A stretch of DNA of 64,000 nucleotides from assembly GCA_002347265.1 (NCBI GenBank), contig DDYB01000013.1, positions 207,359 to 271,358 of the forward strand. The letters are read 5' to 3'. This document shows positions 46,355 to 58,924 of this stretch, piece by piece (position 1 is the stretch's first letter; the number at the start of each line of letters is the position of its first letter). The position numbers and the translations under genes were made by a program. The notes under the pieces were generated by a model, which saw nothing but the letters and a program-made list of their open reading frames with translations, was not told the DNA's origin and searched no databases. The stretch comes from Desulfobacteraceae bacterium UBA2245 (GTDB taxonomy: Bacteria > Desulfobacterota > Desulfobacteria > Desulfobacterales > UBA2245).

Positions 46355-46714
46355 TCAAACCCTGGCCGTCTCTTCCATAGTCATGACTACCGGTATGTTC
46401 AGCTTTTTATTGGCTCGGACAGCATTGATCTCCTCGCCCGGATTCTGTTTAAGCGCCTTCCGGTATAAAAAAATCAGGGCATTCATAGCCTGATTCTGAG
46501 TGGACGCGGCCACATCGCCATGAACAGCAGGATGGGTCAAAAATGACTCAATCTTTTTCTCACCGTCTGCAAGATCATCCCGCGATTTCATATTGTGAAA
46601 ATGAACGAATTTCCTTATCCATGCGCAATAAGACCTTTCCGTATGGATTGAATAATGCCGCAACCGCATGACATCCCGCACCTCATCCAATAATTTCCTA
46701 TCTGTTGTTGACAT
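46355..46714 (-). pseudogene. integron-type tyrosine recombinase (IntI-like), N-terminal 119 codons only
   Basis: LLDEVRDVMRLRHYSIHTERSYCAWIRKFVHFHN...FLTHPAVHGDVAASTQNQAMNALIFLYRKAL...NAVRANKKLNIPVVMTMEE matches the SAM-like N-domain of integron integrases. The ORF stops before any catalytic-domain residue (R-H-R-Y) could be encoded. Confidence 0.7.
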
Positions 46715-46853: not shown

Positions 46854-46998
46854 TTATCAGGGCGAATTAACCTGATAATCAATGGTTGATCAAGGCGCGC
46901 TACGCGCACCTTGATCAACTGCCGGGGTGCCCGGTCGACTCCGTGGTCACCGAGTCGCTACGAGCCTCGATAACCACGGAGTCGACCGGCCGTTGGCA
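46854..46998. repeat. cluster of three strong hairpins / inverted repeats upstream of the intI remnant (attI/attC-like region?)
   Basis: TTATCAGG-9nt-CCTGATAA spans 46854-46878. A 16-bp stem with one mismatch, GTTGATCAAGGCGCGC-TAC-GCGCACCTTGATCAAC, spans 46885-46919. A perfect 16-bp inverted repeat CCGGTCGACTCCGTGG ...27 nt... CCACGGAGTCGACCGG spans 46931-46989. It is followed by GTTGGCAAC. Confidence 0.5.
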
Positions 46999-47090: not shown

Positions 47091-47240
47091 TAGCAGGCTG
47101 TTGAAAAACTGCGCCTGGGGCCGCCATTCAGCGTTGCACGGCTCTCGCCAATGCTCACATATGCTTGAATATGCTGCGCTTGTCGCATCGCCGCGCGCCT
47201 TGCCTGACAGCCTGATTCTTGTTTTTCAACACCCTGTTAG
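47091..47240. repeat. MITE-like repeat, copy 2 (inverted relative to copy 1)
   Basis: It is near-identical to the reverse complement of 13772-13912 apart from a few substitutions and an extra ~9 bp (TGATTCTTG) near one end. It lies between the intI remnant and the defence-type operon. Confidence 0.7.
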
Positions 47241-47271
47241 GTATGTTCGTTGAGCGGCGAAGAGAGTTGGA

Positions 47272-48342
47272 ATGGTTAATACTCTCCTCCAGGCTACCAC
47301 TAAACAATTTCTTATCATCTCATCCTCCGAAGGGGCAACAATGGGTGAATCAGTTCCCGTCAAATTATACTTCGAAGATTCCGGCGAGTGGTACAGCATA
47401 CCGGAGTGGGCGGAGTATTTTATAACGATCGGAAAGCTTTTCGCCGCTGCACCACAATCGGAAAGCAGGATCGTCACCGCAATAGTGGTACCCACCCGGG
47501 CATTTGGAGCGGCTTTTGTGAGCCTAGGGATGGTTGTCAGCGATGCCGCTTCACGAGATCAAGCTTCAAAAGCTGCGCATTTTGAGAGATTATTCGACTT
47601 GCCTCCGGGAACAAGCGTGATTTATCGCCCAAAGCCAGGACAAACCTTGAAAGGAGTGCTTCAAGAGCCTGAGGAATGTGATGGCAGACTGTGGGTGCGG
47701 GTTCAGGTTCAATCCAAGGAAGGGGGTGGATTGACCTGCTTTGTCGACGAATCCAAAGCGTTACAAGTGCAACCTGCCCGTCACTCCGGCAAGTTGCCGA
47801 AGAAACAGGCAGGAGAAAACGTCCGGTTCGCCAATGCATTTGTTGACAAGCTTCTGGGCGACGCTGATCCAGTGCAACTCGGGCTGCGGTCGAAACTCGT
47901 CTGTGCCCTTGTTGGCCGCAAAACTACCCTCGAACACGAAATCCGCAAGACGCCTCTGTCAGTCCATGTCAATGGCGACCACCACGCAGATGGGGTTCTG
48001 CAAGATGTTCTCCGGGTGAATCGATTTGTTACAGAGACACAATCGCATCGCTCCGCACTCGTACCCGTTGGAGCAAAGCCTCCATCCGGCGAGGTTCTCA
48101 AAAACGTCAAGATGGGGGTCATTTTTGATGGCGCGGACGGTTTCCTTAAGTGGGGCGAGATGTGGCACAGCCACCACCAAGTCATTATTCTCGACCGCAC
48201 GGAGGCTTACTTCGATGATGCGATCAGTGCTATCAATGCTAGGTTCTCCCAGAATCGTGTTGATGGTGGAATTGTTCTTCCTGAATGCGAGGCCCCTCCA
48301 GGGGGAGAAGTTCTTACGTTCCAGGAGGCGGTCATCAAATGA
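47272..48342 (+). CDS. hypothetical protein, operon gene 1 (no recognisable motif)
   Basis: ORF-track ORF. The alternative start ATG 47341 has a GAAGGGG RBS. The stop overlaps the next ATG (ATGA at 48339-48342). Confidence 0.5.
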   Translation: MVNTLLQATTKQFLIISSSEGATMGESVPVKLYFEDSGEWYSIPEWAEYFITIGKLFAAAPQSESRIVTAIVVPTRAFGAAFVSLGMVVSDAASRDQASKAAHFERLFDLPPGTSVIYRPKPGQTLKGVLQEPEECDGRLWVRVQVQSKEGGGLTCFVDESKALQVQPARHSGKLPKKQAGENVRFANAFVDKLLGDADPVQLGLRSKLVCALVGRKTTLEHEIRKTPLSVHVNGDHHADGVLQDVLRVNRFVTETQSHRSALVPVGAKPPSGEVLKNVKMGVIFDGADGFLKWGEMWHSHHQVIILDRTEAYFDDAISAINARFSQNRVDGGIVLPECEAPPGGEVLTFQEAVIK

Positions 48343-49916
48343 CACCTCTTTCAATCAGTAGCGCGACCAAGGTTTATAGAGACGCCTCCACATGCGAAAT
48401 TATCCGCCATTTGATAGACCATCCGACCCTAGCGGAATTCTCGCGCTCGCTGAGGGCATTCGTCCAATTGTTGGGGGATGAAGCCGACGATGAATTCTGG
48501 CGGCGCTCCCTCGGCCCCATTCGCCGACTCGGATTTACGTTTTGTTCTACTCCACTCCCGTTTTCGGTGGCCGCAGCAGCAGCTGGAATCGACTGGGCAA
48601 AGCTCCATCGGCAGGTACGTCTTTGCGAGCAGTTGTTTCCCGATACGCACGAGGTGTACGCGAAACTCGTCCAACAATTGGAAGGTTTGAGCTCCGAGAC
48701 TGTTTCGCCTTTTATTGGAACTCTGGAGCAAATCCACCTGCAGGGCGGACAACTTGGCGTCGTCCTGCGGAATCCCCGTATGAACCAGGCGGTGGTTGAT
48801 TTCTTCGCCCGGACCGCAACTCTCAGGAATGCCAGGGTAGTAAGTCCTTCACAACTCCGTGGTGGGCACCTGTGCAATACACTTGCCGTCATCGGCCCCT
48901 GCGGATGGTTTCCCGAACATGTGTTCTCAGCGCCACGGGCCGTGGCTGTCCACGTCATTTCGCTGCGCTGGATTCGTGACACGTGGAAACCTGGTCCAAT
49001 TTTTTTGCACGAGCCCGAGACGTCCGGCAACGGGAGCCGAAACCATCGCATCGGTGAAATGCCGAGCATCGGCGGTACAACTCGCCTGGAGAACAACTCC
49101 CCCACCGATCTCAACCCGGTGGACCTGCTCCCAGCGATTCCAACCTTCGGCCGCAATGAGCGATCGCTCGCGGGCCAATATAATGCAAGTGAAGAGACGG
49201 TTCATGCACGTTTGTGTCACCTTAGTGGCCAGCGGGCATCCTTCGTTGCAGCCTATGATGGCTCCTCGTCGCTAATAATCGACACATTAGAAACGGGGAA
49301 TGCCTTTGTTAGACGCATTCCAGCCGAAGAACTTGAACCAGGCCATTATCTCCTTCTTCGCACATCCGGGGGCGGTGATTTCATAGCCCCACTCGCTGAT
49401 CGAATAATGGGGGATCTGGCTGAAAAACGCCGGTCAGAGCAAACCGAATGGAAACAACGGCTGATCTCCGCAGCAGCCGAACGGTTTGGCACGGTAAACC
49501 GCCGGGAGCTTTCCGCCCTCGTCAGTGCTGAACTGCAGTCGCAAAATCTTTCGCAAGCCCGTCAGGCAAATGTGCATTATTGGATGTCTTCGAAGTGCAT
49601 TCGGCCGCGTAAGATCGAAGATTTTGTCGCAATCCTGACCTTCGCCGGACTTGAAGAGCGGTCCCAGGAGTTGTGGGACGCCATGGGTGACATTGATCGA
49701 GCCCACAGGCGAGCAGGCCATGTCATAAGAGGCTTGCTATTGCACAAGATCGCGACTACATCGCTTGAACCGTTGGAGCGCGATGGTGAGATGGTTTTTG
49801 AACTCAGCGACGAGGACGGCGGAACTATCTCGGCGTTCCAGATCACCGAGATAGTTGGGGAGGATTTCGAGGTGCCCATCCAACGGATCGGCGTATTGCT
49901 GGAAATGGAAGATTAG
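48339..49916 (+). CDS. hypothetical protein, operon gene 2 (no recognisable motif)
   Basis: ATG 48339 (MTPLSISSATKVY) has AGGAGG 11 nt upstream. The track start 48285 would run 58 nt (48285-48342) into gene 1. Confidence 0.5.
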   Translation: MTPLSISSATKVYRDASTCEIIRHLIDHPTLAEFSRSLRAFVQLLGDEADDEFWRRSLGPIRRLGFTFCSTPLPFSVAAAAAGIDWAKLHRQVRLCEQLFPDTHEVYAKLVQQLEGLSSETVSPFIGTLEQIHLQGGQLGVVLRNPRMNQAVVDFFARTATLRNARVVSPSQLRGGHLCNTLAVIGPCGWFPEHVFSAPRAVAVHVISLRWIRDTWKPGPIFLHEPETSGNGSRNHRIGEMPSIGGTTRLENNSPTDLNPVDLLPAIPTFGRNERSLAGQYNASEETVHARLCHLSGQRASFVAAYDGSSSLIIDTLETGNAFVRRIPAEELEPGHYLLLRTSGGGDFIAPLADRIMGDLAEKRRSEQTEWKQRLISAAAERFGTVNRRELSALVSAELQSQNLSQARQANVHYWMSSKCIRPRKIEDFVAILTFAGLEERSQELWDAMGDIDRAHRRAGHVIRGLLLHKIATTSLEPLERDGEMVFELSDEDGGTISAFQITEIVGEDFEVPIQRIGVLLEMED

Positions 49917-49918
49917 CT

Positions 49919-51655
49919 GTGGCTCGCATGATTCCTCCAGTCATTCCAGTATCTTGCCCTAGTCCAGGTGAGCAGGAAATCTTTACGCGCCTCAAAGATG
50001 AACCTGGCACCAAGAATTGGATCGTCCTCCACTCATTGGATATTGCTCACCACCTTCGCCAGGTGGCTGGTGAAACGGATTTCGTCATCATTGTACCGGC
50101 GCTTGGCGTGCTTTGTCTCGAAGTAAAAGCGTGCCATTCGCTGCGCAGAGAAAACGGACTATGGTTCTACGGTCGCGATCCCAAGGGCGATCCGCGCGGG
50201 CCATTCAAGCAGTCATCGGAAGGCATGCACAGCCTCCGCCAGCAAGTCGTGCGGAATGATCCCTCACTCTCGCGAGTTCCGTTTTGGTCCGCCGTTGCTT
50301 TCCCTTTTTTCGAGTTTACAGCAACTTCTGGTGAGTGGCATCCGTGGCAAGTGATAGATGCGCTGCGGTTTCGGCGGCAACCAGTCGCATTATTGATCTC
50401 AGAAATCTTGCGGAGTGCTCGGTCATATTTGAAATCACAGCCGTCGGCCCGCTGGTTTCGCGACTCCGACCAGTGCCCGGATCAGAAGCAGTCTGCCGTC
50501 ATCGCCCGAATTCTCCGGCCAAGCTTTGAATTTGCCGAGAGAGCCCCTGCTCGGCGTGCCCGCAAGCAAGCGGAGATCCTGCGTTACACTGAAGAGCAGT
50601 TCTCTGCGCTCGATGCAATGGCCGACAATGAACGCGTACTATTTTCCGGGCCAGCGGGCACAGGGAAAACAGTTCTCGCTCTCGAAGCGGCTCGCCGGGC
50701 ATCCAATGCGGGCAAGAGAGTCTTGCTTCTCTGCTTCAATCGGCTCCTCGGGCGGTGGCTGTCGCAGCATCATATCGCCCAGTGCGAGGCGGTCACTGCC
50801 GGGACTTTTCACCAGTACCTCCTCAGTTTCACCGGCATTGCTTTGCCTGCCGATCCGTGTGATGCTTTCTGGAAAGTAGATTTGCCTGACGCGGCAATAG
50901 CGAAGCTGATAGACGAGCCCACCGGCGACGCCCGGTTTGACATCCTTGTCGTTGACGAACTCCAAGATTTGTTCAATACCTCTTACATAGATGTTTTAGA
51001 CCTGGTGTTGAAAGGTGGGTTGGCGGCGGGCAACTGGATGCTTTTTGGCGACTTTGAACGGCAGATGCTATACGGACAGGACCGCGACGTCGCAGAAGAG
51101 TTGCGCAACGCGAGGCTCGGAGCATTCGCCAGATGCTCGCTGCGAGTCAATTGCCGAAACACTCCGCGCGTGGCGACGCTTTCACATCTTCTCGGAAAGC
51201 TAACGCCGAATTATTTGCGTGTACTACGACCAGATGACCGCATTGAGCCGGTCATTATGTACTATGCGACGCCATCCCAGCAACGGAAGCAGCTCGTCGA
51301 CACTCTCGAACGGATTCTCCGTGATTCATTTTCAGGCCAGGACATTGTGATCCTCTCTCCGAGAGCTGGAGCGCGCTCCGCAGCTGGTTCTATTGCGACG
51401 AAGCCATGGGCTGATCGGATTGCCCCGTACGAGCAAGCTGCGCCAGACCAGATTCGTTTCACGACAATCCAGAGTTTCAAAGGGCTTGAATCTGCCGCAA
51501 TTGTCGTTACTGACATTGAACATTTGGCTGGTGAACTTTTTTCGTCACTCTTTTATATTGCCACCACACGCGCTCTGGGACGGTTGTACATTCTCGTGCA
51601 TGAGACAGCCAAACCTGAAATTATCAAAGCGCTGTTGGGGCCAGAACAAAAATGA
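49919..51655 (+). CDS. NERD nuclease domain fused to a UvrD/AAA-type (SF1-like) helicase ATPase
   Basis: The N-terminus GEQEIFTRL...GETDFVIIVPALGVLCLEVKA is a NERD pattern. Walker A is FSGPAGTGKT and Walker B is ILVVDELQDL. The C-terminal TTIQSFKGLESAAIVVTDI...LFYIATTRALGRLYILV is a UvrD_C-like ending. Confidence 0.8.
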   Translation: MARMIPPVIPVSCPSPGEQEIFTRLKDEPGTKNWIVLHSLDIAHHLRQVAGETDFVIIVPALGVLCLEVKACHSLRRENGLWFYGRDPKGDPRGPFKQSSEGMHSLRQQVVRNDPSLSRVPFWSAVAFPFFEFTATSGEWHPWQVIDALRFRRQPVALLISEILRSARSYLKSQPSARWFRDSDQCPDQKQSAVIARILRPSFEFAERAPARRARKQAEILRYTEEQFSALDAMADNERVLFSGPAGTGKTVLALEAARRASNAGKRVLLLCFNRLLGRWLSQHHIAQCEAVTAGTFHQYLLSFTGIALPADPCDAFWKVDLPDAAIAKLIDEPTGDARFDILVVDELQDLFNTSYIDVLDLVLKGGLAAGNWMLFGDFERQMLYGQDRDVAEELRNARLGAFARCSLRVNCRNTPRVATLSHLLGKLTPNYLRVLRPDDRIEPVIMYYATPSQQRKQLVDTLERILRDSFSGQDIVILSPRAGARSAAGSIATKPWADRIAPYEQAAPDQIRFTTIQSFKGLESAAIVVTDIEHLAGELFSSLFYIATTRALGRLYILVHETAKPEIIKALLGPEQK

Positions 51656-51661
51656 AATCGG

Positions 51662-54600
51662 ATGGTGAAAATGCCTGACCATGTCGTGAATCGTGATGCA
51701 ATTCTCCGGTCGCTCCACGAGGAACTTGTCGGTCCATGCCCAAGTGGGAAAGAAATTGACTGCAATGCGGCCATTCAGCTGGATGACACCGAGGCAGCTT
51801 ACCGGCCGTATCGGCAACTCGGGACTGGCGAAGAGATTCTCCAGCGCGACGCACCGACGAAGCGCTACGGGGTTGGTGTCCTATACCCGATGGAAGCCCC
51901 AATTGCTCCCGGTGAAATCGAATCCCTGCCGCCATCGCCAGATGAGGAAATTGATCCCGGACCACCAAGCGGTGTCTCAGAGCCTCTAACTGCGTCCGCA
52001 ATCCGTGATTGCGAGGCTATTGCGGGGCGGGCTCAAAGCCGCATCCCAGAGGCCGATTCGGATGACTTTGACCTATCATCGGCAAATGCCTATAAACCTA
52101 GTAGTATGGCTGTAAGCCTTCTAGTGCTCCTTCCGGAAAACGCCAAATTGGTAGTGTCCGCCACTGGCGGCCGCTATGCCATCAAACCGGTAATGCTTGT
52201 TGGGCGCGAACGTCAATGGTGGCTCCGCTCTCCAGTTCGCCTTTGCAGCCAATTTCGCAGGGATGATTTTCCCGTATCACGTGCAGGTTACGCAACTGCG
52301 CGAGAGCCGATCCGCGAGAATATAGACAATCTTGACGTACGGATCGAAGTCTTCACTAGGCCGTACAGGTCCAAACCCAACGAATTTCTTATCACTGTCT
52401 GCTTGGTCAATCGCCAGCAAGCAGAGGGGCGATTGGATTTGCAGTCCCTCTTCCAGTGCCACTTCGATGTGAAGATCGAAGGTGGAAGCTCCGCTGGAGC
52501 CATGATATTGCCGTATCCAACAGCAGAGCCTCTGGACAGTGAAGAGCGCTCCCAGGAATTGCTTTTCCGGGAGAAGCTCACGTTCGCTGTCGGCCACGGA
52601 TGCGCTGCTGAATGGGTGCGCGGCGATACACCCACCAGCGCCAAGAGCGTCTCAGCAGAGTGCTTGCCGATGTTTGAGACGCCAAGTACGACGCCCGATA
52701 TCCGTGCCAAGAGCGGGGAGCCGCTGGTCGCGTCCATGCGGTCTCTCGCTGGCATCGATCCTGAAACCGACGGGTTCGACCAACTCGATGGGATTGTGAG
52801 CGAGTACGAACAGTGGATCTCCGAGCAGGAGGCGCGGATACCCGTACTCAGCACTCAGCTCCAGGAGACTGCGCGACTTCACATGAGTGAATGCGCAGAA
52901 GCTGCTGGGCGGATGCGCGACGGCTTTTCACTTTTACAGAGGGATTCGGAGATCAGGCGGGCATTCCAACTCGCAAACCTTGCTATGCTGATCCAGCAAG
53001 TGCGGTCGAGGCGCGAAGCCCGCATCGCGTCGTTCGACCAGTCCACTACGACGCTCACGTTCGAGGAGCCATACGTTTTGCTCGATCTTAATTCACCGCG
53101 TGCGCGAGCGTGCCAGTGGCGCGCATTCCAGATTGCTTTCATACTCGCGTCGCTCCGTTCAACCGCCGATACTGGCGATACTGACCGCGAACGCGTCGAG
53201 CTAATCTGGTTCCCCACCGGCGGCGGCAAGACCGAGGCCTATTTCGGGCTGGCAGCTTTTAGCATATTTCTGCGTAGGCTCCGGAATCCTGCCGATACTG
53301 GAGTGAATGTACTGATGCGTTATACGTTACGGCTGCTAACAGCGCAGCAGTTCCAGCGCGCATCGCGCCTTATCTGTGCAATGGAGTTCGTCCGGCAGCA
53401 GGACAGCGCTGATTTGGGTGACGCGAAAATCTCTATCGGCATCTGGCTCGGAAGCTCGACGACTCCGAATACGCATGCCGAAGCTCAGGCTGTGCTCCGC
53501 AGCCTAACCAGGGGGGATGGTGCCAAAGAGAATCAGTTTGTGCTCGACCGATGCCCGTGGTGCGGAGCGCAAATGGGGCCGGTCAACCTCGCCGGCAGGG
53601 GACGAGGACGCAGAGGTGTTCCCCGGGTTATCGGGTATATTCGGCGCGGCAACACTGTCGTGTATTCATGCCCTGACCGCAGCTGCGAGTTCCATAGATC
53701 TCTCCCGCTTTATGTCATCGACGAGGATATATACGAGACTCGCCCGGCACTTGTGATTGGCACTGTTGACAAATTCGCAATGCTTGCCTGGCGACCGCAG
53801 GCGCGGGCTCTGTTTGGCATCGGAGACGATGGGACTAGAGCGAATTCGCCACCTGGGCTTATCATCCAGGACGAGCTGCATCTCATCTCTGGCCCGCTCG
53901 GCTCAATGGTTGGCCTTTACGAACCCATCATTGAGGAGTTATGTACTGACCGCCGCGGCCCGGCCCTCGCCCGGCCCAAGATCATCAGTTCCACAGCGAC
54001 GATCCGCAGTTATACGGAACAAGTGCAAGGGTTGTATGCGCGGGGGAGGACCAGCCTGTTTCCCCCACCGGGGTTAGATACCGATGACTCCTTCTTCGCA
54101 AGGGTCGCCCGCCGACCGGACGGCACTCTGGAAAGGGGGCGAGTATACGTCGGCGTTCACGCCCCTGGGCTTGGATCGCTCCAGACAGTTCAGGTTCGTA
54201 CGTTTGCGGCACTGTTGCAGGCTCCCCAGCCACTTCCGGCACCCGACCGCGACCCCTGGTGGACACTCCTCCTTTTTTTCAACAGTCTCCGAGAGCTTGG
54301 AACGACGCTCACTCTATTCCAATCGGATATTCCAGATTTGTTGAAGGGATCTCTCAGACAGCGACTCGGCATCGGATTTCAGGATGTTCGCCAGATCAGA
54401 AAAATGTTGGAACTCACTGGCCGCCTGCCGGGAGACGAAGTGCCAAAAGCTATATCTGCACTTGAAGTGCCAACCGACTCGCGGCAGGGGTATGCCGCAG
54501 ATGTCTGCCTTGCTTCGAATATCATCGAAGTCGGAGTAGACATTGATCGGCTCTCGCTCATGGCTGTCGTCGGTCAGCCTAAAACGACCTCGCAGTATAT

Positions 54601-55177
54601 TCAGGTAACGGGCCGCGTTGGCCGGAAAGCAGATCGGCCTGGCCTTGTGGTCACGATTTATGCCGCATCAAAACCCCGTGACCGCTCCCATTTCGAGAAG
54701 TTCCGCAGTTATCACGAGCGGCTTTACGCCCAGGTTGAGCCTACGAGTGTAACGCCATTCTCGCGCCCGGCACTCGATCGGGCGGCACATGCTGTGATCG
54801 CGAGTTACGTCAGGCAGTCTGGAAACTCGGACCAGGCCGAAAGCCCCTACCCGTTCCCCGCGGCACTTGTTGAAGACGCGGCCAGAATTCTCGAGGGCCG
54901 CGCGGCATTTGTTGATCCAGATGAACTCGCCGCACTCCATAGAATACTCCAGAAGAGAGCCGACGAGTGGCAGCGCTGGCAGCGGCTGAGATGGTCGGGC
55001 GCACTGCACGCGGAAGACATGCCCCTCATGAGGCCTGCCGGAGCTTACGTCGCGCCAGATAAGGCGCGGGTTTCGTGGGCTACCCCACAATCCCTCCGTA
55101 ATGTGGATGCGGAGTGCCAAGCAGAAATCACACAGCTATACATGCTGGAGGAACTGGAGGACACCGAAGATGCCTAG
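51662..55177 (+). CDS. SF2 DEAH-box helicase, DISARM DrmA-like (1171 aa)
   Basis: Motif I IWFPTGGGKTEAY lies at about residue 520. Motif II is IIQDELHLISGPLG, motif III SSTATI, and motif VI QVTGRVGRK. It is followed by an overlapping DUF1998 gene and an MTase. Confidence 0.75.
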   Translation: MVKMPDHVVNRDAILRSLHEELVGPCPSGKEIDCNAAIQLDDTEAAYRPYRQLGTGEEILQRDAPTKRYGVGVLYPMEAPIAPGEIESLPPSPDEEIDPGPPSGVSEPLTASAIRDCEAIAGRAQSRIPEADSDDFDLSSANAYKPSSMAVSLLVLLPENAKLVVSATGGRYAIKPVMLVGRERQWWLRSPVRLCSQFRRDDFPVSRAGYATAREPIRENIDNLDVRIEVFTRPYRSKPNEFLITVCLVNRQQAEGRLDLQSLFQCHFDVKIEGGSSAGAMILPYPTAEPLDSEERSQELLFREKLTFAVGHGCAAEWVRGDTPTSAKSVSAECLPMFETPSTTPDIRAKSGEPLVASMRSLAGIDPETDGFDQLDGIVSEYEQWISEQEARIPVLSTQLQETARLHMSECAEAAGRMRDGFSLLQRDSEIRRAFQLANLAMLIQQVRSRREARIASFDQSTTTLTFEEPYVLLDLNSPRARACQWRAFQIAFILASLRSTADTGDTDRERVELIWFPTGGGKTEAYFGLAAFSIFLRRLRNPADTGVNVLMRYTLRLLTAQQFQRASRLICAMEFVRQQDSADLGDAKISIGIWLGSSTTPNTHAEAQAVLRSLTRGDGAKENQFVLDRCPWCGAQMGPVNLAGRGRGRRGVPRVIGYIRRGNTVVYSCPDRSCEFHRSLPLYVIDEDIYETRPALVIGTVDKFAMLAWRPQARALFGIGDDGTRANSPPGLIIQDELHLISGPLGSMVGLYEPIIEELCTDRRGPALARPKIISSTATIRSYTEQVQGLYARGRTSLFPPPGLDTDDSFFARVARRPDGTLERGRVYVGVHAPGLGSLQTVQVRTFAALLQAPQPLPAPDRDPWWTLLLFFNSLRELGTTLTLFQSDIPDLLKGSLRQRLGIGFQDVRQIRKMLELTGRLPGDEVPKAISALEVPTDSRQGYAADVCLASNIIEVGVDIDRLSLMAVVGQPKTTSQYIQVTGRVGRKADRPGLVVTIYAASKPRDRSHFEKFRSYHERLYAQVEPTSVTPFSRPALDRAAHAVIASYVRQSGNSDQAESPYPFPAALVEDAARILEGRAAFVDPDELAALHRILQKRADEWQRWQRLRWSGALHAEDMPLMRPAGAYVAPDKARVSWATPQSLRNVDAECQAEITQLYMLEELEDTEDA

Positions 55178-57065
55178 AGGACCAGTACGGCGTGGGCAAC
55201 TCATCTCTCCCTTCGGCCCCGGTGCCATGATGATTCTACCGGATGGCGTCTCCGTCATCTGTGCCGGGCTTGACCACTGGTTCAAGCACGAATCCGGAGA
55301 CGATGAGAACATCGACCCGCGAGAGTACCAGGTAGACGAATGGCGACTTGCGACTCGCCTCAACGTGGAACATTTCTATCTCCCCCCAGACTACCGGCGT
55401 GTACGCCGACATGATCCTCTGACCAACGGTTACCTGACCGTCCCATTTCTCCGCTTCCCGCAATGGCACTATTGCACTCGCTGCGGCTTGATGCGCAAAG
55501 TCCCGATAGTCACAAAGGAGCGGATCAAGTGCGCAGAATGCGAGGCACGGGGATGGACCCGCTACATGGTCCAGGTGCCCTTCGTCGCCATGTGCGATGC
55601 CGGTCACATTCAAGACTTCCCGTGGCTTGAATGGGTGTATCGATCTGCAACTCCACCGCAGAACTCGCCACCGATGCGGCTCCTTTCAACCGGTGGAATG
55701 ACACTCGCTGGCCAAAAGGTTAAGGTCGATGGTGGCCCTGAACGAACTCTCGCGGGAATCACTAACGCAAACCCAGACGGCGCCGACACCGAATTGAGCC
55801 GGACGCTCGATAGCGATAGGTCGCCCTACTTGTGCCCCGGCCTACGCCCGTGGCTTGGCACCGAGCATGGCGAGGGATGCGGCAGGCCACTTCGTGGCAC
55901 GCTCCGGAGTGCCGCCAACGTCTACTTCGCGCAGGTGCATAGCTCGATCTATCTCCCCCGCACTGACGATAGCACCGTGGCCGAGGTTATAACACTCCTG
56001 GAACAACCATCTATTAGCACATTTGTCGAAATTCTCACCGGAGCAGGTGTTACCCCCGAACCAGCTCAGTTACGAAAGCAGTTCCGGGAGTTGCTCGCTG
56101 CGTTCACTGATCGGCAGATACAGCTGGCCATCGATACGGTGTGCAGTGGGGGGGCGAGCCGACAGCAAAGTGGCCGGATGGAAGGCGATGACGCAGAAAC
56201 CGGCTTCCGGAGGCAAGAATATGATACTCTGGTTGCTGCCGCCGACTTCGAGCAACTGGTGCTTAAGCCAGCCGATCGCAGGCGATACGCTCCGCAGTTC
56301 TCCCAATACTTCGCGAATGTAACGCTTGTCCACAAGCTGCGGGAGACTAGGGCGCTAACTGGCTTCACGCGAGTATTTGCGGATACTGACCGCGATATTG
56401 ATTACTTGCAGGGAATGCTGCGGCTCAATGAGCCCGAGGTGAGGTGGCTGCCAGCCTTTTTGGTCTTCGGCGAGGGTGTGTTTCTCACCCTAAACGAACA
56501 GCGTTTAAGGCAATGGGAAGAGCAGCCAGAAATACGGGCTCGCGTACATCCACTTGTAGCCCGATACCACGCCCTGCGCCAAGCTCGCCATCTCAGGGAT
56601 CGCCAAGTCGGCCCGCGGTACGTCCTGCTGCATACTCTTGCGCACCTCCTCATCAATCGACTGACGTTTGAATGCGGCTACAGTTCCGCCGCACTCCGGG
56701 AACGCCTTTACGTATCTGAAAATACTGCCGCGCCAATGTCGGGGATACTGATCTATACGGCGGCTGGTGATGCCGAAGGCACACTCGGCGGACTTGTTCG
56801 AATGGGAAAGCCGGGCAGGCTGGAGCCACTGCTCGAACGGGCGCTCAGCGGTGCGCGGTGGTGTTCTGCTGACCCCGTTTGCATGGAAATGGGACAGAGT
56901 GGCGGGCAAGGCCCGGACTCACTGAATCTCGCAGCGTGTCATGGCTGTAGCCTAGTGCCTGAAACAGCCTGCGAGGAATTCAATCGCCTGCTTGACCGAG
57001 GGCTAGTTATCGGGCCATTCGACAACCCAACTATTGGGTATTTTAGCAGAGCCACGGAGGGCTAA
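55170..57065 (+). CDS. DUF1998 domain protein, DISARM DrmB-like
   Basis: ATG 55170 overlaps the helicase stop (ATGCCTAG). There is an N-terminal Zn ribbon CTRC-x15-CAEC. The C-terminus reads HTLAHLLINRL...IYTAAGDAEGTLGGL...CSADPVC...LNLAACHGCSLVPETACEEFNRLLDR, the DUF1998/MrfA-type Zn module. Confidence 0.75.
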   Translation: MPRGPVRRGQLISPFGPGAMMILPDGVSVICAGLDHWFKHESGDDENIDPREYQVDEWRLATRLNVEHFYLPPDYRRVRRHDPLTNGYLTVPFLRFPQWHYCTRCGLMRKVPIVTKERIKCAECEARGWTRYMVQVPFVAMCDAGHIQDFPWLEWVYRSATPPQNSPPMRLLSTGGMTLAGQKVKVDGGPERTLAGITNANPDGADTELSRTLDSDRSPYLCPGLRPWLGTEHGEGCGRPLRGTLRSAANVYFAQVHSSIYLPRTDDSTVAEVITLLEQPSISTFVEILTGAGVTPEPAQLRKQFRELLAAFTDRQIQLAIDTVCSGGASRQQSGRMEGDDAETGFRRQEYDTLVAAADFEQLVLKPADRRRYAPQFSQYFANVTLVHKLRETRALTGFTRVFADTDRDIDYLQGMLRLNEPEVRWLPAFLVFGEGVFLTLNEQRLRQWEEQPEIRARVHPLVARYHALRQARHLRDRQVGPRYVLLHTLAHLLINRLTFECGYSSAALRERLYVSENTAAPMSGILIYTAAGDAEGTLGGLVRMGKPGRLEPLLERALSGARWCSADPVCMEMGQSGGQGPDSLNLAACHGCSLVPETACEEFNRLLDRGLVIGPFDNPTIGYFSRATEG

Positions 57066-58175
57066 ATGGAGATACCGCTTCTATCATTCTTTACCGGAGG
57101 AGGTTTTTTCGATATAGGGTTCAAACAGGCGGGATTCTCTGTCTGCTGGACAAATGAGAATTGCCCAGCATTCATCACTGGATACGAGTACGGAATGTCG
57201 TCATGGCTTTCCTCGCTTGGTAAGCGAGCACAGGCAGCAAGTATCGCCAACCCCAAGAGTATCTGCAATCTGACTTCCCTTGGGGTACTCCGAGAAGCAT
57301 TCGCCGGGCCACGGCCCAAACTTTTTGGTGTCATCGGCGGTCCGCCCTGCCCCGATTTCAGTAATGGCGGCACGCACGCTGGCGGTAACGGTTCAAACGG
57401 CATACTCACTAGCGTGTTTGCCAACATGATTTGCGAACTGCACCCAACCTTTTTCGTCATTGAAAACGTATCTGGGCTTTACCGCGTTCGGAAGCACCGC
57501 GCCTTTTTGGAAATCAAAATCGCCCAGTTGAGAGAGCGCGGCTATGCAGTTGATTACAAGATTCTGAATGCTCTTGAGTTGGGAGTGCCACAATATCGCG
57601 AAAGGCTTTTCATCGTCGGAATCAAAAAAAACATCGCTCAATGCGGTGCTGAAAGAAAACTCACTGTGGCAGAGGAAGGATGGTTTACATGGCCAATAGT
57701 TGATGCATACACTGGGGCGAAATCGCTCCCCTGGCCGACAACAGCGCCATTCGGCGAAAAGCCTACCAAACCCAAAGAGATTCCCCTCGAACTTACCGTT
57801 TACCCGGCGCTGTTTGGAAAAGGTGACCCGGAAAAGCTTCCCAACGGGTGCGATTTCTTCAACCCGTATTCCAGCCGTTTCAATACAATTCCGGAAGGCG
57901 ACGTTGCACGAAAATCATTCAAGAGGCTCCACCGTTACCGGTTCAGCCCAACAGCATGGTACGGGAATCAGGAAGTGCATTTGCACCCTTCCAAGGCAAG
58001 GCGCTTGTCGGTCCGTGAAGCGCTGCGAATTCAATCAGTGCCGGATGAATATGTGTTGCCGGAAGAAATGACACTCTCGGCAAAATTCAAGCTGGTTTGC
58101 AACGGCGTGCCCTGCGTCATGGCATCCCACCTCGCCACCGCGGTGAAATCGTTCTTGAAGCGAGCAAGTGCATGA
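57066..58175 (+). CDS. DNA (cytosine-5)-methyltransferase (DrmMII-like position)
   Basis: Motif I FFTGGGFFDIG, motif IV GGPPCPDFS, motif VI FFVIENV, motif VIII QYRERLFIVG, motif X CNGVPC. The ATG directly abuts the upstream TAA (TAAATG). Confidence 0.9.
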   Translation: MEIPLLSFFTGGGFFDIGFKQAGFSVCWTNENCPAFITGYEYGMSSWLSSLGKRAQAASIANPKSICNLTSLGVLREAFAGPRPKLFGVIGGPPCPDFSNGGTHAGGNGSNGILTSVFANMICELHPTFFVIENVSGLYRVRKHRAFLEIKIAQLRERGYAVDYKILNALELGVPQYRERLFIVGIKKNIAQCGAERKLTVAEEGWFTWPIVDAYTGAKSLPWPTTAPFGEKPTKPKEIPLELTVYPALFGKGDPEKLPNGCDFFNPYSSRFNTIPEGDVARKSFKRLHRYRFSPTAWYGNQEVHLHPSKARRLSVREALRIQSVPDEYVLPEEMTLSAKFKLVCNGVPCVMASHLATAVKSFLKRASA

Positions 58176-58924
58176 CTCGCAGAAAACGGGTTCAAAGGCG
58201 AACATTTCCAGAAGTTGAGAACATAGCACGCATCCTTTCGGAATGCTACGGGGATCACGCGCACAACAACAAAATGAACCCGTTGAACGAATTGCTATTT
58301 ATTGTTTGTAGCGTGCAAACGAACGAGAGACTTTACCAGTCCACATATTCGAGCCTGAAAGCAAAATTCCCCAGTTTTCGCCAACTCGCTGATGCGGAAG
58401 AAGATGAGATTGCCCCTATCATCGCTCACGGTGGACTTGCACGCCAAAAGGCTCAAAAGCTCCGTGCAATTCTGGCCCGCGTGGAGGCCGATTTCGGGAG
58501 ACCAACGCTTTCACCATTGCGGAAAATGGGCGATGCTGAATGCGAAAGGTATCTGGTGTCCCTGCCCGGTATCGGGAAAAAAACAGCCCGTTGCGTGATG
58601 ATGTATTCGCTGGGCCGTGACGTATTCCCCGTCGATTCGAACTGCTGGCGCATTTGTCGAAGGATAGGATGGGTACGGGCAACTCGCCCAGACCGATCGT
58701 GCTCGCCGCGAGACATGGATCGTGTTCAAGCGGGGATCCCGCCAAAGCTTCGATTCAGCTTGCATGTGAATTTTATATCTCACGGTCGTGCATGTTGCCT
58801 GCCTTCAGCAGCGCTTTGTGACGAATGCTTGATTTGGCAGTTCTGTAAAACGGGAAGCCGTCGGATGGCGTCTAGTAGGGTTCTTGGGGACATCCTATAT
58901 CCTCTCTGTCAACACAATTTTTAA
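58172..58924 (+). CDS. endonuclease III-family HhH-GPD DNA glycosylase with [4Fe-4S] cluster loop
   Basis: ATG 58172 overlaps the MTase stop (ATGA). HhH is LVSLPGIGKKTARCV and the Asp region is FPVDSNCWRICRRIGW. The C-terminal CLPSAALCDECLIWQFC has C-x6-C-x2-C-x5-C spacing. Confidence 0.8.
   Translation: MTRRKRVQRRTFPEVENIARILSECYGDHAHNNKMNPLNELLFIVCSVQTNERLYQSTYSSLKAKFPSFRQLADAEEDEIAPIIAHGGLARQKAQKLRAILARVEADFGRPTLSPLRKMGDAECERYLVSLPGIGKKTARCVMMYSLGRDVFPVDSNCWRICRRIGWVRATRPDRSCSPRDMDRVQAGIPPKLRFSLHVNFISHGRACCLPSAALCDECLIWQFCKTGSRRMASSRVLGDILYPLCQHNF

Follow-up and report, generated by a model that had tools for sequence, protein, structure and literature searches.

The first two genes of a seven-gene operon related to the anti-phage system DISARM, found in Desulfobacteraceae bacterium UBA2245 (GTDB lineage Bacteria; Desulfobacterota; Desulfobacteria; Desulfobacterales; UBA2245), probably encode DrmE in two halves, as separate polypeptides that are translationally coupled. 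The operon lies in a 64,000-nucleotide stretch of contig DDYB01000013.1 (GenBank assembly GCA_002347265.1, positions 207,359 to 271,358 of the forward strand), hereafter called the window, whose own numbering is used below. The two genes, designated g1 and g2, had been described in a first-pass annotation made from the sequence alone as consecutive and motif-less, with a combined size tentatively placed in the range of DrmE, and two hypotheses had been put forward, namely a split or diverged DrmE and a novel pair working with the downstream NERD helicase. The first of these is supported by the alignment of both gene families to the DrmE profile and by the DrmE names that homologues carry in NCBI and UniRef. 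The second fails, since the helicase occurs in about half of the related loci and DrmA-DrmB in every locus that is long enough. The pair is a variant of a known family of unknown function and not a new module or a new kind of system.

Relationship of g2 and g1 to the DrmE family

A word-indexed search returned 184 relatives of g2. The window protein itself matches the NCBIfam model DrmE_fam (NF038316, 838 positions) with an E value of 0.0073 and 14.6 bits, residues 397-520 aligning to model positions 712-837, and the Pfam family DrmE_C (PF24957) with an E value of 0.027 and likewise 14.6 bits. DrmE_C is matched at E<0.01 by 33 of the 55 aligned members of the g2 family, and the label 'motif-less', which holds as far as catalytic motifs are concerned, was thus too strong for g2. 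One such member, P0028, which is 65% identical to window g2, reaches 27.5 bits and lies above the DrmE_C gathering cut-off of 27 bits. A much longer alignment to DrmE_fam is obtained with the g2 orthologue of Bacillus sp. FDAARGOS_235 (locus L004, 507 amino acids), whose residues 25-498 cover model positions 331-832 at an E value of 3.1e-19 and with 68.7 bits, the curated cut-off being 80 bits. Close relatives of this orthologue carry the NCBI/UniRef names 'DrmE family protein', 'DISARM anti-phage system protein DrmE domain-containing protein' and 'DUF7764'. The profile comparison that had been proposed for the pair was carried out with hhalign, and the window-type g2 family (A1) was found to match the Firmicute family of approximately 505 amino acids (A4) with 99.6% probability and an E value of 2e-24, the alignment spanning all of the length in 476 columns. 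Because of this match, together with the names and the model match of the Firmicute family, g2 is by profile comparison a full-length orthologue of a 'short DrmE', which spans just the C-terminal approximately 500 of the 838 model positions. Distant g2 homologues encoded on plasmids also adjoin DrmA/DrmB.

The link of g1 to the DrmE N-terminus comes from its more distant relatives. The word-indexed search gave 195 relatives of g1, and an exhaustive profile search gave 983 clusters at 50% identity with E<=1e-3, 358 of them with E<=1e-30; among the best 150 clusters nearly all are stand-alone proteins of 310-370 amino acids. The protein is annotated merely as hypothetical everywhere, including where it stands beside the Firmicute DrmE proteins of approximately 505 amino acids, and the N-terminal part of DrmE would hence correspond to a very large unannotated family. 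When 126 diverse g1 members were compared with NCBIfam, DrmE_fam was the top family. Its best match is P0348 (327 amino acids), residues 65-226 of which align to model positions 51-195 with an E value of 2e-6 and 26.4 bits. P0348 matches the g1 profile at an E value of 4e-47, and its gene sits in a g1-g2-DrmA-DrmB locus that is part of a defence island, in an NCBI genome assembly of 6.95 Mb. Extrapolation of the alignments places g1 at approximately model positions 37-310 and the first residue of g2 at approximately position 307, with a shared boundary around 305-310. Since P0348 aligns to positions 51-195 and the g2 type to 331-832, and since the extrapolations meet, g1 and g2 appear to be collinear and contiguous with the single-chain DrmE model without gap or overlap, the support being thinner for g1 than for g2. 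The collinear cover of the 838 positions is attained at the family level by combining both genes. The two proteins together comprise 333+525=858 amino acids, in keeping with the size range suggested for DrmE, and they are encoded not as a single polypeptide of approximately 800 amino acids but in two open reading frames (ORFs) with a 4-nt overlap.

No P-loop, nuclease, helix-turn-helix, transmembrane or Zn-binding family was found for g1 or g2 in Pfam, NCBIfam, PADLOC and PHROGs, in agreement with the first-pass annotation, and neither protein contains a Walker A or DEAD motif. Window g1 has no match in Pfam, NCBIfam, PADLOC, PHROGs or PDB sequences, and sequence searches of PDB with the four family profiles (A1-A4) returned no relatives. 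The proposed structure predictions yielded models for both proteins, and Foldseek found no PDB match for either at E<=1e-3. The AlphaFold model of g2, with a predicted local distance difference test (pLDDT) score of 77, consists of an N-terminal alpha/beta domain that carries a helical insertion (approximately residues 20-215), a disordered and variable linker (219-285) and a C-terminal part built of a beta-barrel, then long helices and lastly a small beta domain, this C-terminal part corresponding to the DrmE_C region. Its top PDB matches are all lobes of superfamily 2 (SF2) helicases (XPB, RIG-I, the C-lobe of Fun30, FANCM and ISWI), the best having an E value of 3e-3 and a TM score of about 0.2. 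The g1 model (pLDDT 69) is an alpha/beta structure with small inserted barrels, and its matches comprise just Tudor- or CarD-like barrels at E>0.02; a search of BFVD with this model gave no helicase match and was uninformative. Comparison of g1 and g2 with a 31-sequence DrmA profile by hhalign was insignificant (probability <=2.3%), and no homology was detected between g1 and g2.

Conservation of the two-gene form and alternative readings

Approximately 47 loci were mapped (25 from genomes, 6 from plasmids, 3 via representative proteins and 13 of the Firmicute type from metagenomes), in which g1, g2, the NERD helicase, DrmA, DrmB and the methyltransferase were located by local hidden Markov model (HMM) and phmmer searches. 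The genome loci belong to Planctomycetota, Thermodesulfobacteriota, Cyanobacteria, Deinococcota, Chloroflexota, Acidobacteria, Rhodothermota, Omnitrophota and to metagenome-assembled genomes (MAGs) of Gammaproteobacteria and Clostridia. In these loci, which represent more than 10 phyla, g1 is followed directly by g2 and no fusion of the two was observed. There are three exceptions to the direct succession, namely a remnant in a Planctomycetota MAG with g1 truncated at approximately residue 288 (L022, around 10850), a Nostoc plasmid with an insertion sequence (transposase) between g1 and g2 (L003, 3976-5163) and a Priestia plasmid with g2 broken into two ORFs (L005, 6931-8410). The junction is an NTGA overlap in 24 of 30 cases and a TAATG overlap in three more. 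Both halves are strongly conserved, the mean column identity being 70-76% when relatives as low as 55% identity are included. Programmed frameshifting via a conserved slippery site was considered for the junction and ruled out, because the junction sequences vary between loci. A tblastn search of plasmids for a single-chain DrmE, in which DrmA, DrmB, g2 and its Bacillus orthologue served as queries, found none; besides two-gene loci it yielded only class 1 DISARM (L006) and further DrmAB cassettes (L009-L011). Genome and metagenome scans for single-chain DrmE likewise returned split forms alone. An 801-amino-acid protein 5' of DrmA in L. plantarum pMK02 (L007), taken up as a single-chain candidate, proved not to be DrmE-like. 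Judged from the retention of split and overlap across more than 10 phyla without any observed fusion, the split is ancient and conserved and not the result of a recently broken gene. Clear matches of both halves to DrmE had been expected to make this an ordinary split gene; it is not one in the sense of a recently broken gene, its two-part form being widespread. DrmE would accordingly have a natural, conserved break near residue 310, so that its two domains could be expressed separately for biochemical and structural work.

The pair is linked to DrmA-DrmB, which accompany it in each of the 43 loci of sufficient length (43/43). In the same co-occurrence comparison, which the first-pass annotation had proposed, the NERD-UvrD helicase was found between g2 and DrmA in just 24 of the approximately 47 loci; the cyanobacterial and Tepidiformaceae loci lack it, as do all Firmicute-type loci, including the 13 from metagenomes and the Bacillus plasmids, so that 23 loci combine g1-g2 with DrmA-DrmB without it. 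Plasmid tblastn gave the same picture, with seven of seven DrmA matches at >=37% identity belonging to g1-g2 loci and the weaker DrmA matches that were inspected all belonging to other system types. In these searches an alignment starting from residues 1-11 was seen solely for the DrmA proteins of g1-g2 loci, other DrmA proteins aligning from residues 54-294, and the clade-specific DrmA N-terminus of approximately 55-240 residues is a candidate docking site for g1-g2. DrmAB cassettes with other contents were also seen: that of Photobacterium (L009) carries an AAA ATPase and a hypothetical protein, that of D. gobiensis (L010) a NERD-like ATPase upstream and, downstream, an AAA ATPase with two hypothetical proteins, that of Rhizobium (L011) UvrD upstream and NERD downstream, and that of L. 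plantarum (L007) a C5 methyltransferase and the 801-amino-acid protein. DrmAB thus appears to be a module that is combined with many different accessories.

Several observations weigh against reading g1 and g2 as the halves of DrmE. The 14.6 bits of window g2 lie far below the curated cut-offs of 80 (NCBIfam) and 27 (Pfam), and PADLOC 2.0 reports no DrmE match for window g1 and g2 or for 10 diverse orthologues. The link of g1 to the DrmE N-terminus consists of 2 of 126 members at E<=10 with one HMM, 2e-6 being the best value, and neither window g1 nor the g1 proteins of Bacillus, Priestia and Nostoc match DrmE_fam. The structural matches of both proteins are weak, the operon has no DrmC, so that its mechanism may differ from that of characterised class 2 DISARM, and the comparison with single-chain DrmE was made through its profile model. 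Part of this evidence would also suit a distinctly unlikely alternative in which g2 is a short DrmE-family protein and g1 an independently recruited partner that is not homologous to the DrmE N-terminus, as most g1 members have no DrmE_fam match, g1 belongs to no Pfam, PADLOC or PHROG family, and some g2-type proteins of 505 amino acids are named 'DrmE family protein' by NCBI on their own. However, the P0348 match lies in the N-terminal part of the model, in the right order and in the very space that g2 leaves free, the g1 length of approximately 330 amino acids equals the uncovered part of the model, and g1 always stands directly 5' of g2 with a stop/start overlap, the disrupted loci aside.

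Another unlikely alternative sees DrmE (g1 and g2 together) as a protein of SF2-helicase-like build that has lost its activity, is divided between the two RecA-like lobes and acts as a helicase mimic or scaffold on DNA. The consistent top matches of g2 to SF2 helicase lobes (E values of 3e-3 to 0.05) agree with it, and so do the g1 patterns seen by eye, strand-'PTRAxxAA', strand-'FDGA' and strand-'LDRTE', which resemble helicase motifs Ia, II and III in a protein that has no P-loop. However, no Foldseek match reaches E<=1e-3, the TM score is about 0.2, and the g1 model, itself of moderate confidence, matches no helicase; because of these weak matches and the insignificant hhalign comparison with DrmA, the inactivated split helicase is a weak possibility. 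That g1-g2 form a new sensor or specificity pair for the downstream NERD-UvrD helicase is highly improbable: the helicase does follow g2 directly in the window and in the other loci counted above, but the pair is not a module of this helicase, because about half of the loci have DrmA-DrmB and no NERD helicase. Moreover, NERD-type helicases accompany DrmAB cassettes that have no g1-g2 (L010, L011), and the homology of g2 to DrmE is contrary to a NERD-partner module. It is scarcely credible that the pair represents a recently frameshifted drmE pseudogene of no functional significance. A single-base indel at the ATGA would presumably interconvert fused and split forms, but the conservation of both halves and the presence of the split in all of the approximately 47 loci, with the overlap retained, refute a recent pseudogenising event. 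The identification of g1 and g2 as separately encoded halves of DrmE remains the best supported of these readings.

Organisation of the operon and its surroundings

The seven genes form a tight operon on the + strand, with g1 first and a HhH-GPD glycosylase gene last (Table 1), and the last five genes are identified with strong scores in PADLOC, Pfam and NCBIfam. The gene limits, ribosome-binding sites and ATGA coupling given for g1 and g2 in the first-pass annotation are all present, and both ORFs are real and conserved. The longest g1 ORF (47272-48342) encodes 356 amino acids and the alternative ATG at 47341 gives 333; because the homologues measure 329-335 amino acids and cover just 91-94% of the longer form, translation is likely to start at 47341. 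Homologues of g2 have 522-529 amino acids with 100% coverage. Orthologues of approximately 631 amino acids suggest that DrmB starts near 55170.

Table 1. Genes and sequence elements of the probable DrmE-split operon (window coordinates)
Feature	Coordinates	Strand	Remarks
GAAGGGG, Shine-Dalgarno-like	47329..47335	+	5 nt ahead of ATG 47341; read from sequence
g1 (gene 1)	47341..48342	+	Probable homologue of the DrmE N-terminal part, 333 aa; start supported by homologues
AGGAGG, Shine-Dalgarno of g2	48323..48328	+	Within the 3' end of g1; read from sequence
ATGA stop/start overlap	48339..48342	+	TGA of g1 with ATG of g2; couples g1 and g2
g2 (gene 2)	48339..49916	+	DrmE-family protein, 525 aa; corresponds to about positions 307-838 of single-chain DrmE
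DrmE_C (PF24957) match in g2	49299..49742	+	Residues 321-468; Pfam
NERD + UvrD-like SF1 helicase	49919..51655	+	578 aa; optional partner; candidate nuclease replacing DrmC
DrmA, YprA-family SF2 helicase	51662..55177	+	1171 aa; PADLOC DrmA E 1.7e-206
DrmB (DUF1998/MZB)	55101..57065	+	Longest ORF 654 aa; PADLOC DrmB E 8e-69; Pfam MZB
C5 cytosine DNA methyltransferase, DrmMII-like	57066..58175	+	Pfam DNA_methylase E 9e-43; PADLOC DruM2, MTase_II, DrmMII
HhH-GPD DNA glycosylase	58097..58924	+	Final operon gene; Pfam HhH-GPD E 9e-11; NCBIfam monofunctional DNA glycosylase E 1e-27

On the C5 methyltransferase the PADLOC DrmMII models reach an E value of 2e-28, the DruM2 and MTase_II models scoring higher. 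The glycosylase gene overlaps the 3' end of the methyltransferase gene; the same order of the two is found in L012-L014 and L037, the pair lies upstream in L040, and Vsr takes the place of the glycosylase in L002, L004 and L038. The glycosylase is probably a T:G mismatch-repair companion of 5-methylcytosine methylation. When the region upstream of the operon was scanned for a sigma-70 promoter, the signal was not above chance. This region contains a 119-amino-acid ORF divergent from the operon (46355-46714, - strand), which represents the N-terminal third of an integron integrase, truncated or frameshifted, and matches IntI4 (PDB 2a3v) at an E value of 1.5e-20; such a fragment beside g1 was not found in the other loci. 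A GTTRRRY-type core (GTTAGGT) stands at 47236-47242, just 5' of g1, and a perfect 16-bp palindrome at 46885-46919.

Possible role and comparison with known DISARM systems

According to Ofir 2018, as far as this work is summarised in 10.1101/2021.12.28.474362, drmE is of unknown function, its deletion abolishes class 2 DISARM protection and drmC is dispensable; the essentiality of DrmE is reported there just for Bacillus class 2. The influence of DrmE on DrmAB specificity is regarded as an open question (PMC9142583). For the operon described here, it is predicted that g1 (approximately DrmE 1-310) and g2 (approximately 307-838) assemble into a heterodimer without enzymatic activity of its own, which may serve as an adaptor or licensing subunit of the DrmA-DrmB helicase complex. 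The proposal of a non-enzymatic adaptor is made because of the obligate linkage to DrmAB, the translational coupling, the lack of catalytic motifs and the independence of the pair from the methyltransferase and the NERD helicase. The heterodimer would engage DNA, with g1 as its putative DNA-facing part, possibly read the modification state and let DrmAB act on foreign DNA, the C5 methyltransferase would mark self DNA, and the NERD-UvrD nuclease-helicase would replace the missing phospholipase D (PLD)-family nuclease DrmC. Such an adaptor or DNA-reader mechanism is put forward tentatively, its chances being somewhat short of even.

A handle on DrmE function, in the direction of DNA-modification reading, is provided by one locus (L037, 10001-11584, protein P0279), in which a phosphorothioate-binding sulfur-binding domain (SBD) of the ScoMcrA type is fused N-terminally to g1. 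This domain matches PDB 7cc9 and 5zmo at an E value of 2.6e-8 as well as Pfam DNA-SBD_ScoMcrA, and the seven-gene operon of L037 otherwise has the same content as that of the window. Since phosphorothioate DNA is read by the SBD, its attachment to g1 suggests a location of g1 at the DNA and a bearing of the DNA-modification state on the role of g1. A separate SBD-HNH gene lies approximately 1.5 kb upstream in the same locus. A wider proposal, which must be called doubtful, joins several of these elements: the heterodimer would be an enzymatically inert reader of DNA state, with g1 turned to the DNA and g2 coupling it to DrmAB, this reader and the operon without DrmC but with NERD-UvrD would constitute a third, widespread class of DISARM in which DrmE licenses the helicase, and the single-chain Bacillus DrmE would be a secondary fusion of the pair brought about by a 1-nt change in the NTGA.

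By the PADLOC definition, class 2 DISARM comprises DrmA, DrmB, DrmC and DrmE together with DrmMII (PMC9252829). The window operon has DrmA, DrmB and a C5 methyltransferase, but neither DrmC nor a DrmE detected by PADLOC, and the locus is not a canonical class 2 DISARM. No PLD-family DrmC was matched among the seven operon genes by PADLOC or Pfam, and a regular-expression test of the window and related loci, limited to the available flanks, detected no ORF of the HxKxxxxD type. The most fitting description of the system is a DISARM variant that lacks DrmC and has a split DrmE, the NERD-UvrD nuclease-helicase being present in some loci and absent from others; it is undescribed in the literature searched. 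Neither DrmE nor the g1-g2 architecture is mentioned in a 2025 survey of YprA-family systems (PMC12458937). This DISARM-like subtype, widespread among Planctomycetota, Cyanobacteria, Deinococcota, Chloroflexota, Bacillota and other groups, is missed by PADLOC 2.0 and by the NCBIfam and Pfam cut-offs.

Among accessory proteins of related systems, DruD of type I Druantia resembles the pair in serving a YprA-family helicase system. Residues 357-463 of g2 show a single weak PADLOC match to it (E 0.0027), which carries no claim of membership and, if real, would connect accessory proteins of two YprA-helicase systems. DrmD, the SNF2 helicase of class 1 DISARM, is comparable as a class-specific accessory partner of the DrmAB core, and the interplay of DrmD and DrmE with DrmAB is described as unresolved (PMC9142583); the helicase motifs of DrmD are intact, whereas g1 and g2 have none, and in sequence the pair bears no similarity to DrmD. 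A close counterpart is DrmE of class 2 DISARM, which likewise is encoded immediately upstream of drmA-drmB, the operon also containing a C5 methyltransferase, and has no recognisable catalytic motif, and to whose 838-position model g2 (331-838) and a g1-family member (51-195) align, the pair having 858 amino acids. It differs in being one chain and not two polypeptides with a conserved NTGA overlap; moreover, the scores of the window copies fall far short of the curated cut-offs, PADLOC misses both, and their operon lacks the PLD protein DrmC and contains a NERD-UvrD helicase and a HhH-GPD glycosylase. The Firmicute DrmE family of approximately 505 amino acids (DUF7764; P0423, P0417, P0421) has just about 20% identity to window g2 and its loci are without the NERD helicase, yet its members are full-length homologues of g2 by hhalign (99.6%), with a g1 homologue of approximately 330 amino acids encoded upstream and DrmA-DrmB downstream.

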